Shown one piece after another: positions 47,218 to 56,256 of a stretch of 64,000 nucleotides of DNA. The stretch is taken from the NCBI GenBank assembly GCA_963848295.1, contig CAWKDB010000010.1:128001-192000 (forward strand), in the 5' to 3' direction. Numbering within the stretch: position 1 is the first letter of the stretch; every line of letters begins with the position of its first letter. Source of the DNA: an uncultured delta proteobacterium. GTDB taxonomy: Bacteria > Myxococcota_A > Polyangia > Haliangiales > Haliangiaceae. Made by a program: the position numbers and the translations under genes. Under the pieces are notes generated by a model. That model did no database searches. It was given only the letters and a program-made list of their open reading frames with translations, and was not told where the DNA came from.

Positions 47218-47249
47218 GTACGATTGCTCGCATGCTCGTTGGAACTCAC

Positions 47250-48545
47250 ATGAGAGCCCAGCTGTCGCCGCTGAAGTCGCGTCGGGCAATGCTCGATACG
47301 CTGCTGAAGCACCTCGACATGGTTCGCCTGTCTGTTGGCGCGCTTGCGATCGTCATGCTCACCCTCACCGCCTGCAACGGCCTGATCACGGCGCCGGGCG
47401 GCGGCGGCGATGACGACGGCCTGACCCCGGAAGAGCGCATGGCCCAGCAGCTGTGGCTGTCGGGCGCGCTACCGGTGTTCAAGCAGCCGGCGCCCGCGGG
47501 CGGCGACTGCGCGAGCTGCCATGACGGCGGCCCCGCCGCCCCGACCGCCGCGCTGCCCTATGCGTTCCTCGCCGGCGACTCGGACCTCGCGATTCACGAC
47601 ACCATCGTCGCGTTCAGCCCCGCGGTGGTCGACCTCGATGCGCCGTCCTCGAGCCGCGTGATCGTCAAGGGCGCCCACGAAGGCCCCGCGATGACGACCG
47701 ACCAGCAGACGCCGGTCCTCGCGTGGCTCATGGCCGAGCAGGCCGCGCAGGCAGCTGGCAGCAGCACCACCGTGCTGCTTCCGAAGTTCACCCCCGCGAT
47801 CTGCCCGTCGGGCACCGACGCCTCGGCGTGCCCCGTCAACACGATGACGCTCGACGCCGTCGGCGGCACGGGCGCGACTGTCACGTTCATCGCCTACGCG
47901 CTGAACGACACGCTGTACGTGATGAACCTGTCGATCAACGGCGGCCCGAATGGCGTCTACGTCGAGCACCCGCTGTTCGTGTCGTATCCCGCCGACCCGA
48001 CGGCCGACCCGATCCCCGACAACCTCGATCGGTTCTTCGCCATCCAGGATGATCAGGCCGCGACGACCTCGACCCTGCTCGGCACCGCGGCGTTCGTCGG
48101 CTTCGACCCGACGCTCCAGATCTCGATTCAGTTCAAGACGGTCGGCGCTTACCAGCCGGACATGGGCGGCACGATGCCGCCGAGCGGCTGCCAGCAGCTC
48201 GCCGACTTCAAGGCCGACGCGCAGGGCCCGATGACCACGAACTGCCAGACCTGCCACTCGAGCAAGGGCGCGACGAAGAACGCGAGCGCGATGGCGTCGA
48301 TGGACATCACCGGCATCGAAGCCACCGACGACCCGACCATCCTCACGGCGTGCAACCAGGTCCGCACGCAGATCAACTTCCAGCAAGTCGCGATGAGCGG
48401 CTTCTTCATCTCGCCGAACCCGTCGGATGCCGACGGTCACCCCTTTAAGTTCGGTAACAACCAAGGGAACTTCAACACGTTCCAAATCGGCGTTGATGCC
48501 TTGGGTTACCGCGGAAGCCACGTCCCCGTAAAAGGAGCCCCATGA
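47250..48545 (+). CDS. Diheme c-type cytochrome-like lipoprotein
   Basis: LTAC lipobox; CASCH and CQTCH; start uncertain; a probable indel near 48500 would move the stop to 48531. Confidence 0.7.
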   Translation: MRAQLSPLKSRRAMLDTLLKHLDMVRLSVGALAIVMLTLTACNGLITAPGGGGDDDGLTPEERMAQQLWLSGALPVFKQPAPAGGDCASCHDGGPAAPTAALPYAFLAGDSDLAIHDTIVAFSPAVVDLDAPSSSRVIVKGAHEGPAMTTDQQTPVLAWLMAEQAAQAAGSSTTVLLPKFTPAICPSGTDASACPVNTMTLDAVGGTGATVTFIAYALNDTLYVMNLSINGGPNGVYVEHPLFVSYPADPTADPIPDNLDRFFAIQDDQAATTSTLLGTAAFVGFDPTLQISIQFKTVGAYQPDMGGTMPPSGCQQLADFKADAQGPMTTNCQTCHSSKGATKNASAMASMDITGIEATDDPTILTACNQVRTQINFQQVAMSGFFISPNPSDADGHPFKFGNNQGNFNTFQIGVDALGYRGSHVPVKGAP

Positions 48546-49724
48546 AGAGGATCTCATTTCTACTCTTGGCTACTGCGCTAGCGGCGCCTGCCTGTACCGG
48601 CAGCGTCGGAGATGGCTCGGGCTCCAACGGCTCGGACGGGTCCGACGGATCCGGAAGTGCCGATCAGTACCAACAGGTGCTGAACAGCCGCGTCGTCGAT
48701 TACAACGCCGCGCTGCGCATCGCAGCTCTGCGTTTGACCGGTGACCTGCCGACGATGGCAGAGATCAACTCGATCGCGAACGCGCCGGATGCGGCGACGC
48801 AAGCGACGACCTACCAGGGCCTCATCCAGCAGTACATGAGCCGCCCGGCGTTCGCCCAGCAGATGTTCTACTGGTGGCGCGACACGATGAAGATGGGCGG
48901 CACCGCCGTCCTCGACACCGCGCCGGCGTTCGCCGCCGAGCTCGCCGTGAACAACGGGTCGTATATGGACCTGTTCACCGCGACGAGCGGTAACTGCCCG
49001 ACGTTCGACGGCGTGTCGACGTTCACCCCGGCGACCTGCACCAACGGCGGCCCGGTCTCCGGCATCTTGACGAACCCCGGCGTGCACATGCAGTACGTCT
49101 CGAACTTCGCGTTCCGCCGAGTTCGCTTCGTCCAAGAGGTGTTCGACTGCTTGAAGTTCCCGGCGGAGGTCACCGCGACCCCGACGGACCTCGGCGCCGG
49201 TATCGCGCCGTACACCAGCCCGTGGGACTTCGGCAGCATCGCCGGCACCAACGCGGCGCTCAACATCAACAACGGCGGCACGATCAACTTCCTCGATACG
49301 TCGGCCGTCATCTGCGCGAACTGCCACACGACGATCAACCACATCGCGCCGCTGTTCGCGTACTACGACGCGAACGGCATGTACCAGACGTCGATTGCAG
49401 TGACGACGCCGGCTGTCGGCTCGCCGCTCGCGAAGATGACTGACTACCTGCCGGCCGGACAAGCGACCGCGTGGCGCTACCAAGTGCCCGCGGCCGGACA
49501 TCCCGGGCCTCGGCGCTGACATGGCGGCTGACCCCGCCGTCGCAGCCTGCGGTGTCGCCCGCGTTTGGAACTGGGCGCTCGGCAAGACCGACATCGTCGA
49601 CGCGCTCGAGACCGTGCCGAACGACACCATCCAAGCCCAGATCGACGCGTTCACCTCGGGCGGCTACAAGATGAAAGACCTCATCTACGCCGTCTACACC
49701 AGTGACGACTTCGTCAAGTTCTAA
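48542..49724 (+). CDS. Monoheme lipoprotein, DUF1549/DUF1592-like; frameshift near 49495
   Basis: AAGGAG RBS; ALRIAALRLTGDLPT, GILT, CANCH; C-terminus ACGVARVWNWALG...DDFVKF in the next frame. Confidence 0.65.
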
Positions 49725-49734
49725 GGAGGCCACC

Positions 49735-50409
49735 ATGACCAAAATTGGATACACCCTGGCGATCCTGGTCGCGTCCGTGGCCCCTGCTTGCACGGACGAT
49801 CTGACCCCACCCAATCTCCCGCCCCGCGGGGTCGACGTCCGGCGGAACCGGAACCACGTTCGACCACGACAACGACGGAATCTCTCCGTGGGACCTACTC
49901 CAACGCATCGAAGTGGAAGGCCCGCCGAGCTTCACCTCGCACATGCATAGCTGCCCCAAAGTTAGGGTCGCTACGCTCGGCAACATGCTCACCTCGCTCG
50001 GTATGAACCGCGCGAACACGACGTCGCTGTCGGCCGGTGAGCTCTACAACGACGGTCAAATCGCGCTCGGCGATCGCGAACTTCCCGAACCGCATTCGAG
50101 AGAACCTCGACATCACGACGTCGGGCGCCTCGAAGGAGTTCGACATCTTCGCGGCCGGCGCACCCGAGACGATGGCGTCTATCACGGCGGCCACCGGCGC
50201 TATCGCGGCTCGCTGCCCCGGTGTTCGAGCTGTTTGACGCCAGCGGCAACTGCACGCCGAGCGGCGTCACGCTGCATCATCGGTGTGCCGGCGATCAGCG
50301 ACCGAGCTGGACCTTTGCAACCTGACGGTTCAACGCGCGTCGACCCCGGCTACTCGGACAACAGCTAGCCGTCGCAGCCATGCTGGCTGCGGCTTACACC
50401 TGCGAGTAG
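49735..50409 (+). CDS. Hypothetical Cys-containing lipoprotein, several frameshifts
   Basis: AAGGAGG RBS; MTKIGYTLAIL..PAC; fragments EGPPSFTSHMHSC, NRIRENLDITTSGASK, AAAYTCE-stop. Confidence 0.6.
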
Positions 50410-50421
50410 GAGACACCCACC

Positions 50422-51822
50422 ATGGCTAAATCACCTTTTGCTAAGCGCGAAGAGCGCACGGAGCTCACCCGCCGTGCCCTCATCAAGTGGAGCGTGGCTG
50501 CAGGTGCAGCGCTGGGCGTCTCGCGCTCGAAGATCTTCGATATCCTCGAGAAGACGGCCGGGAAAAGCGTAGCCGAAGCGGCTTCGGCTGCCCTCACCCA
50601 CCGCTACGTCGGCATCGCTGCCGGCAACGGCGGTCTCGCATGGTTCACCTCGTTCTGGCCGCAGAACGCTGTGGCCGCGGCGAACAACGCGAACTACGCG
50701 GTCATTAGCCGGGCTCGTCGCTGCTCGCCGGGACGGCCAAGCCGCTGACGGTCACCGCGAACACGCCGTGGATGAGCATCCCGGCGGCGAATCAGGTGAG
50801 CGTGTTCCAAGCCGGCAACAACGAGACGCACACCCAGCAGATGGTCTCGCCGGTGAGCCTCAACGGCTCGAACATCTGGTCGGTCGTCAGTGCGTTGCAG
50901 GCTCGGCGCGTCGGCGGTCATCCCGCTGATTACCATCGGCAACGTCGACGTCGGCACCGCGGCAGGCGCGGCCCGTCCGTCGAACGTGAACAACGGCGAC
51001 GGCATCGTCGGGTCTGTTCAACAGCGCGGCCTCGCGCGCTGGCGGCTTGCTGTCGAACCCCGCGGATGCGGCACTGTACAAAGCGCACTACGATGCGTTC
51101 ACGCAGCTCAACCGCGCGGCGAACCGGTCGACGACGAAGATCAGCTACACGCGGCCTCGGGCGCGGCTGGCTTCCTCGGTACGAACCTGTCGGCGGCCCT
51201 GTCGATCACCGCCGCTGACCTCACGCGGTACGGCATCAACGGCAACACGCGGACGAACGTGTCGGATATCGGCCGCGCGCTGATCGTGACGGTCAAGGCG
51301 TTCAAGATGGGCTTGACCAACGCGGTCATCCTCCCGGCGATGGACGACGACCCGCACGGCGCGTTCGACGGCGGCGACATCAACATCGTCCCTGGCCAGC
51401 TGAAGGGCGTGTTCGACGGCTTCATGAACGACCTCGCGGCTACGGTCGACGACTCGTCGCAACTCGCGCTGTCGGCGGACACCGTGATCTCGATCCACGG
51501 CGATACGAACAAGGACCCGATGACGAAGGCGGGCTGGCCCGACGGCACCGCGAACAACAGCAACACCGTGTTCGTGTACAGCGCGGGCGAGCTGAACTCC
51601 GGTTGGTACGGCGGTTACACGATCGCCAACAACAAGGGAACGGCGATGGGCTTCGACAACACCGGCGCCACCACGACGTACAACGGCACGATGGCGGCCA
51701 CGTACGCGACGTCTGCAATCGCGTATGCGGTGGCGAAGCGAGATGATCGCGCGGTCGGTGCATTCGAGAACGGTCTGATCACCGTCTCGGCAGGCATCGG
51801 TAAGCCGCCGACCGGCACCTGA
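50422..51822 (+). CDS. Tat-exported protein (DUF1501/DUF1552-like), several frameshifts
   Basis: AGGAG RBS; LTRRALIK twin-arginine signal; DDDPHGAF, ISIHGDT..P, GWPD. Confidence 0.65.
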
Positions 51823-51843: not shown

Positions 51844-51885
51844 GACGGCGCCAGCTGGACCACCAGCGGCGCCGTTTTGTTTTTT
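51844..51885 (+). terminator. Rho-independent terminator
   Basis: GACGGCGCC-A-GCTGG-ACCA-CCAGC-GGCGCCGTT followed by a T run. Confidence 0.88.
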
Positions 51886-51901: not shown

Positions 51902-52534
51902 GTGCGCGGTTTGCTGTTCGTCGCCTGCCTGACCGCGTGGGCGTGCGGCCACCACGACGAGCCAAAGCCGAAGCCGTCGGCTTCGGTCGACGACGAGGCT
52001 CGCGAACAGGCTCGGTTCGACGCCGAACGCCACCCGGAGAAGGTGGTCGAGGCACTCGCGCTGCATCCGGGCTCGCGGGTCGCGGACGTCGGCGCTGGCT
52101 CGGGCCTGTTGACCATCCATCTCGCGCGGGCGGTGGCGCCGAACGGCAAGGTGATCGCGACCGACATCGACGGTGCGGTGCTCGACTTGCTCGCCCATCG
52201 GCTCGAGGTCGCCGGGTTATCGAACGTCGTCGAGCGCCGGGTCGTCGCTGCGGACACGCCCGACCTCGAGCCGAACAGCTACGACGCGATCCTGCTCGCC
52301 GAGGTCGACCACTACTTCAAGGATCCCGTGGCGTGGCTCGCATCGGCACAGACCGCGCTCAAGCCAGGTGGGCGAATTGTCATCTCGAACCGGATCTACC
52401 ACCGCGTGCAATCGCTGGACGCCGCGCGCAAGGCAGGGCTCGTGCTACTTTCTGAATCGACGCCGGTCCCGACCCACTTCATCGCGGTGTTCGTTCGCCC
52501 CGACGCCGCGGCCCATCCGGGAGACCACAAATGA
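51902..52534 (+). CDS. Class I SAM-dependent methyltransferase with lipoprotein signal
   Basis: VADVGAGSG, VIATDID, SYDAI, LKPGG; AWAC lipobox. Confidence 0.9.
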   Translation: MRGLLFVACLTAWACGHHDEPKPKPSASVDDEAREQARFDAERHPEKVVEALALHPGSRVADVGAGSGLLTIHLARAVAPNGKVIATDIDGAVLDLLAHRLEVAGLSNVVERRVVAADTPDLEPNSYDAILLAEVDHYFKDPVAWLASAQTALKPGGRIVISNRIYHRVQSLDAARKAGLVLLSESTPVPTHFIAVFVRPDAAAHPGDHK

Positions 52535-53058
52535 CGACCTCGAACGCGCTACTCCTCGTCGGCACCGCCGCGCTGCTCTCGGGTTGCCCGAGCTCCGGCA
52601 ATCCCAAGGTGTTGTGGCTCGCGCCCGACGCCGCCGAGACCAAGGTCAAGCTCGTCGATTCCGACCCTGGCCCTTATTGAGCGCCAGGCGTGGGGTCCGG
52701 CGGATCCCAGGAAGCTCCATTCGACCTCGAGGCTAGCGTTGCCGCTGGCACGTACCACCTCGTGCTCGATAGCGTCATCGTCGCGTCGGTCGACGTGACC
52801 TACGATCTGATCTGGCGGCGCGGCAGCACCGACACGACGCTCGCGGAGTGGACGATGCACTTCGACCCGAAGGGTGGCGATGACTACTCCGCGACCGCGT
52901 ACGAAGTCGATGAGACCGCGCAAGCGATCGATTTCGAGAGCGGCGACCAGCTCGTGTTTCGCTACACCGGCGCGAACACGACGAGCAACGAGGCTTACAT
53001 CCCGAACGGCGATGGCGCGTTGTCGCAGGGCCGCGACCCGAACATCACGCTGCCCTGA
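52531..53058 (+). CDS. Lipoprotein interrupted by in-frame TGA (52678-80): either one 175-aa recoded protein or 49-aa + 122-aa ORFs
   Basis: MTTSNALLLVGTAALLSGC...DPGPY-TGA-APGVGSGG; the 52690..53058 ORF is in the same frame. Confidence 0.6.
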
Positions 53059-53064
53059 GCTCGA

Positions 53065-54333
53065 TCACGACTCGACGTAGTCGAGGTCGACTGCGAACGT
53101 CTCGCGCATCTTCGCGAGGCCCGCGAACCCGATGCCGAACGCGAGCACGCCGACCCCGATCGCGGCACCGACGGCGGTGAGCCCGGCGTGCTTCTGCAAC
53201 AGCTCGTAGCCGGTCGTGAGGATCACGCAGCGAGCCGCGCACGAAGTTCGGCGTGGTCGTCGCGACGGTCGCCCGCAAGTTCGTGCCGAACTGTTCCGCC
53301 GCGGCGGTGACGAACACCGCCCAATAGCCGGTAGACAGGCCGATCGCAGCGCAGATCGCGTAGAACGCGACGAATGACGTGCCGCCGATCGTGAAGTAAA
53401 GGATCGTCGTGAGCGCGGTCGCCGCCATGAAGATCGCGATCGCTCGTCGTCGCGACCGAAGCTTTTGGCTGACCAGGCCGGCGATGAACCCACCGATCGC
53501 GCCGGAGGCGTAGCAGTAGAACAGCCCGGTCGCCGGGCTCGGCTCCGCCGGCAAGCCCAGGCCCTTGGGCCCACCGATCTCCTTGCCGAGCATGATGAGG
53601 ATGCCGATGCCGTACCAGATCGGCACGCCGACGGCGATCCCCGCGACGTAGCGCAGCAAGCGCTCGCGATCCGAGAACAGCTTGAAGAAGTTGCCGCGGG
53701 AGACCGTCTTGTCCGCGACCGCGGTGCGGAACATCCCCGACTCGGCGACGCCGAGCCGGAGCGCGAGCAACCCGATGCCCATGCCGCCGCCGATGTAGTA
53801 CGCGGTGCGCCAGTTCGTCGCCGGGATGCCGGGAATCGCGCCGCCGATGATGCCGGCGACCACCCCGCCGAGGATGCCGGTCGCGGCGACGATCGTCGTG
53901 CCGAGGCCGCGCCGCTCTTTGTCCATCAGCTCGCTGACCAGCGTGATGCCGGCGCCGAGCTCGCCGGCCAGGCCGATGCCCGCGATCACGCGGCAGATCG
54001 CGTAGCCGGTCAGCGTGTCGACCGTGCCGTTGACGAGGTTCGCGCCCGAATACAGGATGATCGATCCGAACAGCACGGACAGCCGGCCGCGGCGGTCGCC
54101 GATGATGCCCCACAGGATGCCACCGACGAGCATCCCGCCCATCTGCATCTGGAGCAGCAAGATGCCCTTGTCTTGGACGCTCGCGCCGGGCTCAGCCCGA
54201 GCGCGTGCAGGCTCGGGCCGCGGACCGCGCCGAACAGGATCAGGTCATAGATGTCGACGAAGTAGCCGAGCGCCGCCACCACCACGGCGAGCGACACGGC
54301 GCGGCGGGTGGGTCCAGACACTTCGCGCATCAT
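53065..54333 (-). CDS. MFS transporter, frameshifts near 54170-54200 and 53225
   Basis: LGYFVDIYDL, GDRRGR, GIGLAGELG, AEQFGTNLRAT. Confidence 0.9.
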
Positions 54334-54351: not shown

Positions 54352-56256
54352 ATGAGACAACTCGCGCTCGGCGCTGGCGATCGCGCTCGCTCTCACCGCA
54401 ACCGCATCGGCGGGCGAGCAACACACGTGGGTCAAGGCGATCCCCGATGCGGCGACGTGGAAGGCGTACTCGAAGACGGTCGGCTCCGACGAGCTCGGCA
54501 AGTGCATCATCGACGTCAAGACGAACGACATCTACTACTTCGACGTCAATCTCTTCAACATCCACGCCGACTTCGTGTTCAGGGTGTTGTTGAAGCAGGC
54601 GTGGACCGGCGACAACGTCCGCGAGTTCAACCTCAACTACGAGCGCCAGAAGCCGAAGTTCATCCTGTGCTACCTGACCCATCACCTCAAGGTCGACAAG
54701 TGGACGTTCTCGTATCTGGGAGGGCGACAAGATCGCGGTCGACGACGTGATGCGGACACGGCAGAAGCTCGCGACGACGTTCTTCATCCGGGACTTGCTG
54801 TTCCGACCCGACTCGCCGATGCAGGCGAAGGTCGCCGGCGAGGTCGCGACGCCGCGGCCAGAAGACGATCACGAACGACGAGATCTACAAGGCGGCCGAG
54901 TTCCAGGCGTTCACGAAGGGCCATGCGGTCGGGCGGCTCCGGGTCGTTCCGATCGGCACGCCGTACGAATCGCTCAACTACGATCGCCACGACATCGTGC
55001 TCTTGCAAGAAAGCTATCCGGACATCACGCCGGTCGCCGGGATCCTCGCGACGCAGTTCTCGACGCCGCTGTCGCACGTCAACTTGCGCGCCGGCGCGTG
55101 GGGTATCCCGAACGCGGGCGACAAGAAAGCTCGCGCGAAGTACGGCGCGCTCGACGGCAAGTACGTGTACTACGAGGTCACCGACACCGGCATCACGCTG
55201 CGCGAGGCGACCGCCGCCGAAGTTCAGAAGATGAAGGACGACATCGAGGTCGCCAGGCACGTCGAGCTGCCGAAGGCCGACCTCGTCAACGCGCCGGTTC
55301 GCGATGCTCGATCGGATGCGCGCGAAGGACGTCATCATCTACGGCACGAAGGCCGCGAACCTCGGCGAGATCGTCAGCGCGAACCTGCCGGGCGTCCGCG
55401 TGCCCGATGGGTTTGGCGTGCCGTACTTCTATTATCGAGCAGCACATCCTGCGCAATCACCTCGACGTCAAGATCAACGCGATGCTCGACGATCCGCGAT
55501 TCAAGACCGACGCGGCGTTGGCGCAAGACATCGCTCGAGACGTTGCGCGAAGCGATCATGAAGGCGCCGATCGATCCGGACACGCTCGATGCGATCTACA
55601 AGCGGATCCGGGTCAAGCTCGGCGGCAAGGGCGTGTTCGTGCGCAGCTCGTCGAACTCCGAGGATCTGCCCGGGTTCAACGGCGCCGGCCTCTACGACAC
55701 GCAGCGGCAACGTCGTCGGCAAAAGCCCAGCTCGCGGACGCGTTGCGCTACGTGTGGGCGTCGATCTGGAACCTGCGCGCGGTCGACGAACGCGCGGCGT
55801 TCGGCATCGACCACCGCCAGGTCTACATGGGCGTGCTCGTGCAGATCGGCGTCAACGCGACCGCCGCGGGCGTGCTCGTCACCCAAGAATCTATGGGATC
55901 CGACCGACGAGAACGGCTTCACGATCAACGCGAAGTGGGGCCTGGGAGAGCGCGTCGTGCAGGGCCAGATCAACCCGGAACAAGTCATCTTCGATCCGAC
56001 GAACGACGGCACGAAGATCATCACGCGGTCCGATGACACGGTGATGCTGAAGTTCGATCCGCAGGGCGGCACGAAAGAACAGCCGGTTCCGCCTGGCGCG
56101 AGCGTGATCCTGACCGAGGAACGTGCGAAGAAGCTGTGCACGATGGTGAAGCAGTTCATTCCGGTGTTCACGGACGGCCACGCGCTCGATGTCGAGTGGG
56201 TGCTCGAAGGCGAAGACTTCTGGATCGTCCAAGCTCGCCCGTACGTGGGGTCGTGA
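54352..56256 (+). CDS. PEP/pyruvate-binding (PPDK/PPS N-terminal ATP-grasp) domain protein with signal peptide, several frameshifts
   Basis: YGTKAANLGE, VPDGF, VRSSSNSEDLPGFNGAGLY, VWASIW, DVEW..IVQARP; N-terminal ALALTATASA. Confidence 0.85.

Follow-up and report, generated by a model that had tools for sequence, protein, structure and literature searches.

A single UGA codon separates two apparent open reading frames that follow one another in the same frame within a 64,000-nucleotide stretch of DNA (hereafter the window) from an uncultured member of the Haliangiaceae, and the question raised by this arrangement is whether they are two genes or one, and, if one, how its UGA is read. A preliminary description of the locus, made without database searches, proposed one exported protein of 175 residues in which the UGA is read through as selenocysteine (Sec) or by another recoding. 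All of its claims about the frame are seen in the sequence: an open reading frame missed by the gene track starts at 52531 in an ATGA overlap, has an LSGC lipobox (residues 16-19), reaches TGA at codon 50 and then stays open to the TGA at 53056-53058. It is likewise correct that the downstream frame has neither a signal peptide nor a strong ribosome-binding site, and that the protein has no CxxU or other redox motif and belongs to no recognised selenoprotein family, in so far as NCBIfam and Pfam give no match. The lipobox cysteine is invariant in 30/30 members and nearly invariant in a wider set, and the product is predicted to be lipidated and exported. The consensus around the UGA is P-x-P-[FYW]-UGA-[AGP]-P-G-[VL]-[GR], and homologs in the databases have Kofleriaceae and Myxococcales as their source labels. 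The features of the locus are collected in Table 1.

Table 1. Features of the UGA-containing locus (positions in the window)
Feature	Positions	Strand	Remarks
UGA-read-through gene	52531..53058	+	predicted 175-residue lipoprotein, Sec at position 50; relatives full-length with one TGA
Signal peptide II and lipobox LSGC	52531..52587	+	lipidation predicted at Cys19; start and preceding stop overlap as ATGA
In-frame UGA, inferred Sec codon	52678..52680	+	TGA in 93/93 distinct junctions; short-read contigs agree
SECIS-type hairpin, 8-bp stem, GGC loop at 52699-52701	52691..52709	+	covariation, synonymous-codon null, SelD/Prx-like geometry
Predicted single jelly-roll (galactose-binding-like) domain, residues 24-175	52600..53055	+	two strands before the UGA, the rest after it
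Class I SAM-dependent methyltransferase	51902..52534	+	upstream neighbour; lipoprotein-type N-terminus; Pfam Methyltransf_12/31/11/25
GC-rich hairpin with T-tract, likely terminator	51846..51885	+	sequence and fold

An assembly error does not account for the UGA at 52678, since two short-read contigs, X1 (52511-52725) and X2 (52565-52770), bridge it with 0 differences, although both come from one study that is possibly the source of the window itself. The preliminary description had cautioned that the codon lies in an error-rich region, and that reads with TGG or TGC in its place would overturn the proposal; this caveat is resolved by the TGA in both contigs and by its retention in more than 100 other genomes.

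The in-frame UGA is conserved in all full-length copies found in genomes. With the read-through protein as query, 39/61 genomes matched and 40/40 matches have one TGA, and with a profile of 30 sequences 93/401 genomes drawn from the class matched, 95 of the 97 matches having one TGA and the remaining two being a frameshifted piece and a contig-edge piece, neither of which spans the UGA site. These class-wide carriers fall in families f1, f3, f4, f12, f13, f22 and f30, four being outside the order. A wider profile identified 117 carriers among 147 genomes of the order, each of the 124 matches having exactly one in-frame TGA. The gene is present in 85/90 genomes of the genus, and a draw of 401 genomes from the phylum gave 8 real matches, all inside the class; the sole match beyond it, in G546, was rejected as a chance match in a non-coding frame. 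The two halves lie in one frame throughout 93 distinct junctions, and the recoded site is TGA in all 93, never TAA or TAG (either of which, like halves in different frames, the preliminary description had held to speak against its reading), whereas at their 3' ends these genes stop with TAG in 45, TGA in 32 and TAA in 16 cases. These counts, alignments and junctions include the unpublished genomes G010 and G385 (L022, L078, L068), and the conclusions hold without both.

Duplicated and diverged copies follow the same rule. UGA and hairpin are kept in divergent paralogs of about 25% identity, L044 (G025) and L120 (G235), in the second copies L156 and L157 and in the tandem copies of G022 and G404. 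Duplicates, tandem or dispersed, were observed as L052 (G022) and L059 (G404) and in G749, G763, G767, G768 and G774, with UGA in all matches; no paralog was found in G000, the genome of the window. In L044 and L120 the N-terminal hairpin region contains two Cys, and the C-terminal PNGDG motif is missing. Both halves of the gene are under purifying selection (pN < pS), and the three codons between the UGA and the downstream GTG have a pN of 0.00 against a pS of 0.57, as calculated for 25 genus members, 5/30 with nearby indels having been excluded.

The stem-loop noted in the preliminary description is present as described, TGGGGTCC-GGC-GGATCCCA at 52691-52709; its loop G lies 18 nt past the UGA, and its folding energy is -12.2 kcal/mol. 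On its own it is only weakly more stable than chance (z -2.1 when 23 nt are picked by hand, z -0.2 over 53 nt), and its significance rests on conservation and covariation, both of which are pronounced. RNAalifold folds 30 genus sequences into a 6-bp stem in which 97.8% of cells pair and 23 cells are changed on both sides, a covariation reached by 0/500 shuffles and by no slid register. In a separate, gap-free alignment of 29 more distant sequences 94.8% of cells are paired and 25 are double-changed, and covariation in the wider set likewise beats 500/500 shuffles and all slid registers. All five core stem pairs are intact in 84/93 junctions, whereas 1000 rounds of synonymous-codon resampling for the same proteins left on average 2.5, and never more than 9, junctions intact; the protein sequence thus does not explain the stem. 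Pair 16:24 takes all four Watson-Crick forms (GC 45, CG 18, UA 12, AU 10), a variation that alters the encoded amino acid (Ala, Val, Pro, Ser, Thr); on a quick version of the tree, in which P0125 and P0126 join on long branches, these forms require 5-8 changes each, of which 2-3 are forced by strongly supported branches. The preliminary description had held that the lack of a conserved hairpin would speak against its reading; the hairpin is conserved, with compensatory changes.

The geometry of the hairpin is that of bacterial SECIS elements. The loop opens with GG in 87/93 junctions at a fixed register, mostly with a spacing of 18 nt, and a single junction, L118, has no good hairpin. The bSECIS model outlined in PMC13188914 comprises a loop of 3-9 nt with G in its first two positions, a stem of 4-16 bp, a spacing of 16-37 nt and an MFE of at most -7.5 kcal/mol; a hairpin of this consensus lies at 17-20 nt in 92/93 junctions and is, taken alone, at or below -7.5 in 91/93. 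An identical GGC loop, with equal C-GGN-G geometry, lies at +18 in the SelD gene of G007, and among ten Prx-like UxxC TGA loci that were fetched, five have a C-GGN-G loop (GGC or GGU) at +21, one has a GUC loop at +21, two have a different hairpin and two were missed by the filter. The element was considered as a terminator and rejected, as it has no T-tract and is absent from the terminator scan; Rfam gave no match over it.

The genome of the window has the machinery for Sec insertion that the preliminary description had proposed to look for, i.e. selA, full-length selB with its winged-helix domain, selD and tRNA-Sec, the last being the only UCA-anticodon tRNA found in G000. Among 106 gene-bearing relatives (further carriers from the 147-genome order search are outside this count), selA was found in 102 and another Sec marker in each of the other four, namely selB over the cut-off in G001, G007 and G385 and tRNA-Sec in G413, which is 67% complete. 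In the 401-genome class draw, where selA is present in 225/401, 90 of the 93 carriers have selA, and the gene occurs in 3 of the other 176 genomes, with selB and/or tRNA-Sec. Family f12 has selA in 8/71 and the gene in 5/71 genomes, the carriers being four with selA and one with tRNA-Sec. Sec-positive genomes are often without the gene, as in f14 (selA 58/71, gene 0/71). Because the carriers are kin, the co-occurrence is to be read as a pattern rather than as a statistical test.

Other Sec genes of the group were seen in passing. The SelD match of G000 (G000:C10:3584927-3585883, +) has no internal TGA and the SelD of G007 and G054 has one, so that Sec and non-Sec SelD seem to be mixed in the group. 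Two likely selenoproteins of G000 have GG-loop hairpins at +20/+21, a rhodanese-like lipoprotein with YCHNES-UGA-HAC (G000:C2:299280, -) and a Prx-like protein with YRGYW-UGA-PWC (G000:C10:807164, -). In a genome-wide scan of G000 for recoded UGA codons the gene ranks 4th of 22, behind these two, a ranking that is illustrative only, the coding-score cut-off having been loosened after a first scan missed the gene. The codon before the UGA is TTT in 45, TAT in 34, TTC in 10, TGG in 4 and TAC in 0 of the 93 junctions, whereas codons further downstream prefer C (TTC 461/TTT 67, TAC 287/TAT 48). The avoidance of C at the third position before the UGA is real, and the non-C trend is common to the SelD, Prx-like and rhodanese-like Sec genes inspected.

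Modelling of the read-through protein by AF2, with Cys in place of Sec, predicts one all-beta domain (pLDDT 90, pTM 0.82). The predicted strands 27-32 and 39-42 precede the UGA and residue 50 is in a long, well-predicted loop, which in the model appears ordered and Pro/Gly-rich, linking the N-terminal beta-hairpin to the sandwich core. The best structural match of model residues 24-175 is 8yzn_A 363-553 (VIA Z 13.8, rmsd 2.8, 145 aligned), i.e. the C-terminal jelly roll of CocE/PepX-type hydrolases, with carbohydrate-binding modules next; Foldseek gave cocaine esterase (E 2e-4). The C-terminal half alone matches 8yzn_A at 393-553 (Z 10.2), and the full model extends colinearly to 363 through the strands before the UGA, as expected for a single chain. 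The C-terminal half is, however, modelled confidently by itself (pLDDT 96.6), and the model therefore gives no proof that it needs the N-terminal half.

Assignment to a known family did not follow from any comparison made. At E 0.01 the window protein and the homologs P0125 and P0126 matched no family in NCBIfam or Pfam, 30 members gave only two chance-level, single-member matches to Pfam, a PDB sequence search gave no match at E 10, and matches in the ESM Atlas were to unnamed clusters only. None of the 119 prokaryotic selenoprotein families catalogued in Table 1 of PMC13188914 fits by HMM or motif, a few families without an HMM in the libraries having been compared by motif and description only. 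With respect to the CocE/NonD/PepX hydrolases, the predicted model has their C-terminal jelly-roll fold, but the alpha/beta-hydrolase domain is absent and there is no PDB (E 10) or Pfam sequence match; sharing the CocE/PepX jelly roll does not show a function.

No Cys form was found in the genome searches (61, 401 and 147 genomes) or among the best-listed protein matches. A scan of species genomes for a pattern with Cys at the site, which could not detect TGA copies, returned 21 stretches, only one of which passed, weakly, and that one is a chance match on the antisense strand. When metagenomes were scanned with a pattern admitting sense codons other than those ending in A, 15 stretches came back, none of them a homolog; being exact, the pattern would overlook forms as diverged as P0125. 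The absence of a Cys form holds within the reach of these searches; nearly all selenoproteins have Cys homologs, as stated in PMC13188914 and PMC12013277. Two intact, stop-free, single-chain homologs were found, P0125 with Ser and P0126 with Gln at the site; at the residues constrained by the hairpin, both have diverged. Each is a singleton on a short contig (761 and 1170 bases, respectively) with a long branch nested within the UGA clade, and as such both look like diverged derivatives of UGA genes. That they have Ser and Gln shows that the fold does not need a chalcogen at this site.

A methyltransferase gene lies within 1.1 kb upstream in 75/94 loci, its stop often overlapping the start codon, and the arrangement suggests that the two genes are likely translationally coupled. 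It is not upstream in 19/94 loci, mostly of family f13; two of the 94 are second tandem copies and in one the methyltransferase is further off. The lipoprotein signal of the methyltransferase is conserved across the class, which would be odd for a SAM-dependent enzyme if it were exported. Complex prediction for the methyltransferase with the two halves scored 0.00 and speaks neither for nor against an interaction. Judged by its sequence and fold, the hairpin preceding the methyltransferase gene likely terminates an upstream cytochrome operon and sets off the two-gene unit, although the consensus terminator scan did not pick it up. Linkage of the cytochrome operon to the gene is largely confined to the genus; in the window, 47232-51822 (+) encodes CxxCH lipoproteins (DUF1549/DUF1588-like) together with a Tat-signal protein, with frameshifts interrupting the sequence. 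On the other side, an MFS transporter gene (53045-54333, -) and the next gene (54353-56256, +) are split by frameshifts, which look like long-read indel errors.

Two separate genes in one frame, the first for a lipoprotein of 49 residues and the second, re-initiated at the GTG 9 nt past the stop, for a protein of 122 residues, with the products associating, would agree with database annotation, which is split: the 326 proteins retrieved comprise 289 C-terminal halves, 31 N-terminal halves (each with F, Y or W as its last residue) and 6 that span the junction, 3 of these being frameshift artefacts and one unrelated. P0085, P0154, P0249 and P0271 were set aside as frameshifted artefacts, and P0211 as the unrelated protein. 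The protein lists consist of the best 120 of 296, 120 of 644 and 150 of 231 matches, at the top of which close full-length, stop-free forms would have ranked. The confident model of the C-terminal half alone and a potential start at the fourth codon after the UGA in 71/93 junctions (GTG 69, TTG 2) also fit two genes. However, this codon is never ATG and is a non-start in 22/93 (GTC, CTG, ATC, GTT, Ala, CTC). Where Val is encoded by GTC the opposite stem base often turns G, the choice of GTG or GTC being compensated across the stem, which argues that the codon follows RNA structure. Shine-Dalgarno pairing before it is weak (median -1.9 kcal/mol, 12/94 at or below -5) compared with that before the N-terminal start (-6.45, 21/30 at or below -5), the start would fall partly within the stem, the three intervening codons are conserved as protein and the C-terminal half has no export signal while the N-terminal half is a lipoprotein. 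By these sequence comparisons the downstream GTG is not a conserved independent start, and we regard two genes as very improbable. A TTG/GTG start overlapping the UGA in the -1 frame was also considered and rejected, the resulting frames ranging from 10 to 223 codons with no conservation. A sequencing error or a pseudogene might be suspected from the frameshifts in flanking genes of the assembly, but is hardly credible given short-read contigs that are identical across the TGA, the same TGA in more than 100 other genomes and a pN below pS on both halves.

We favour the reading of the two apparent frames as one gene, the conserved UGA of which would be decoded as Sec by SelB bound to the covarying downstream hairpin, giving a membrane-anchored, exported protein of 175 residues with a single jelly-roll domain. 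SelB-dependent insertion of Sec, whatever purpose it serves, appears highly probable. The preliminary description had allowed for Sec or another recoding in its single protein; the conserved TGA, covarying hairpin and Sec genes support the single protein and the first of these, and make the second unlikely. The Sec reading has points against it, including the lack of a Cys homolog, unlike nearly all selenoproteins, with Ser or Gln in the stop-free homologs; the lack of a redox motif, in a fold with no selenoprotein precedent in the PMC13188914 catalogue; the ability of the C-terminal half to be modelled alone (pLDDT 96.6); the missing hairpin of L118 (1/93 junctions); the relatedness of carriers, by which co-occurrence overstates independence; and the missing methyltransferase in 19/94 loci. 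Non-Sec read-through, in which the hairpin would stimulate near-cognate decoding (as Trp, Cys or Arg, or as Ser on tRNA-Sec), accounts for the missing Cys homologs and for Ser and Gln in their place, and conserved UGA read-through without Sec has a precedent in insect SPS1-UGA, as described in PMC4561486. It is nevertheless improbable, as the gene was found only in genomes with Sec markers, even in the selA-poor family f12 and opposite to SPS1-UGA, the stop is always TGA, the spacing and GG loop fit a SelB-type SECIS, and tRNA-Sec is the only UCA-anticodon tRNA found in G000. A selenium-gated switch, in which Sec is inserted but its chemistry is incidental, and the UGA ties the full-length protein to selenium or sets its ratio to a 31-residue lipopeptide, is a less improbable alternative, though we still consider it unlikely. 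It remains under consideration because the replacements seen are Ser and Gln, not Cys, and is in keeping with a site in a linker loop without a partner Cys, with the conservation of the terminated piece as a lipopeptide whose last residue is invariably F, Y or W, and with a skewed -1 codon suggestive of tuned decoding. The stop-free homologs are, however, rare, on short contigs and long branches, and look derived; the non-C codon at -1 is also present in ordinary SelD, Prx-like and rhodanese-like selenoprotein genes; and a precedent for such a switch was not found in the literature. Sec insertion with a chemical role for a lone selenolate is the reading we consider reasonably probable, because a residue of no importance should sometimes have lost its inefficient UGA in more than 100 genomes. 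As the mature protein has no conserved partner Cys, the selenolate would act alone, perhaps as a nucleophile or as a soft-metal or redox ligand outside the cytoplasm, in a manner for which a thiolate could not substitute. The protein may work with the coupled lipoprotein methyltransferase, e.g. as a methyl acceptor.

The gene thus likely represents a new family of exported selenoproteins without Cys homologs. What is likely novel is the missing Cys forms and the non-redox fold, the Sec decoding route itself being of a known kind. We found no description of the family in the literature, although unvalidated candidates in references 64 and 66 of PMC13188914 or in supplements could include it, and the main text of PMC13326102 (BSepDB) gave no term match. 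At odds slightly better than even, we would see here a near-core soil-myxobacterial gene in which Sec is not exchangeable for Cys, being either the first lectin-like jelly-roll selenoprotein with selenium-only chemistry or a UGA- and SECIS-based switch that senses selenium and selects between a short lipopeptide and the full-length surface protein, and the type member of a class hidden from pipelines built on Sec/Cys pairs. Most selenoprotein discovery pipelines require a Cys homolog; the new family is invisible to standard pipelines, which implies a class of selenoproteins that is filtered out by the method of discovery. The family directly tests the rule, put forward in 2025 in PMC12013277, that every known selenoprotein seems to have a Cys homolog. 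It also offers a system for studying why Sec is kept over Cys, being a small single domain with one Sec, no partner Cys and natural Ser/Gln variants, and it corrects the annotation of hundreds of split database entries, each pair consisting of a tiny lipoprotein and a hypothetical protein.

With regard to known systems, the predicted fold is like that of the CocE/NonD/PepX hydrolases (8yzn PaL, 6nff, 4pf1, 3i2f) and of CBM4/6/16/35-type modules, but here it is a stand-alone domain on a lipid anchor, without a hydrolase domain and with 8-14% identity. SaoX, SaoB and SaoC and the ExtKL/MccSep-type cytochromes (NF040886) are likewise exported or lipoprotein selenoproteins, although of other folds, and the window protein has no NCBIfam match; for SaoC, Haft and Gwadz (bioRxiv 10.1101/2022.07.06.499078) reported a stem of 7 bp and a GGU loop, and according to PMC13188914 it was the alignment of UGA with Cys that led to the Sao families. 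Insect SPS1-UGA has a comparably conserved UGA with RNA structure and non-Cys residues in homologs, but, as described in PMC4561486, persists without Sec machinery or a SECIS, whereas the new gene is found only with Sec markers and a bSECIS-type hairpin. Glycine reductase selenoprotein A (GrdA) and the Geobacter cytochrome candidate described by Fujita et al. in 2007 (PMC1914089), both cited earlier as without Cys forms, are like the new family in having been proposed as selenoproteins without non-Sec homologs; Cys forms of GrdA were reported later, and all known selenoproteins seem to have Cys homologs, as put in PMC12013277. For the Geobacter candidate no SECIS was detected at the time (PMC1914089), whereas the new family has a covarying one. 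Canonical selenoproteins differ from the new family, in which no thioredoxin or other redox fold, CxxU/UxxC motif or Cys homolog was found; their SelB/SECIS genes, including those for SelD, Prx-like UxxC (PF00578) and rhodanese-like proteins, nonetheless have the same UGA with a small, GG-starting loop 18-21 nt downstream, in the same genomes that carry selA, selB, selD and tRNA-Sec.
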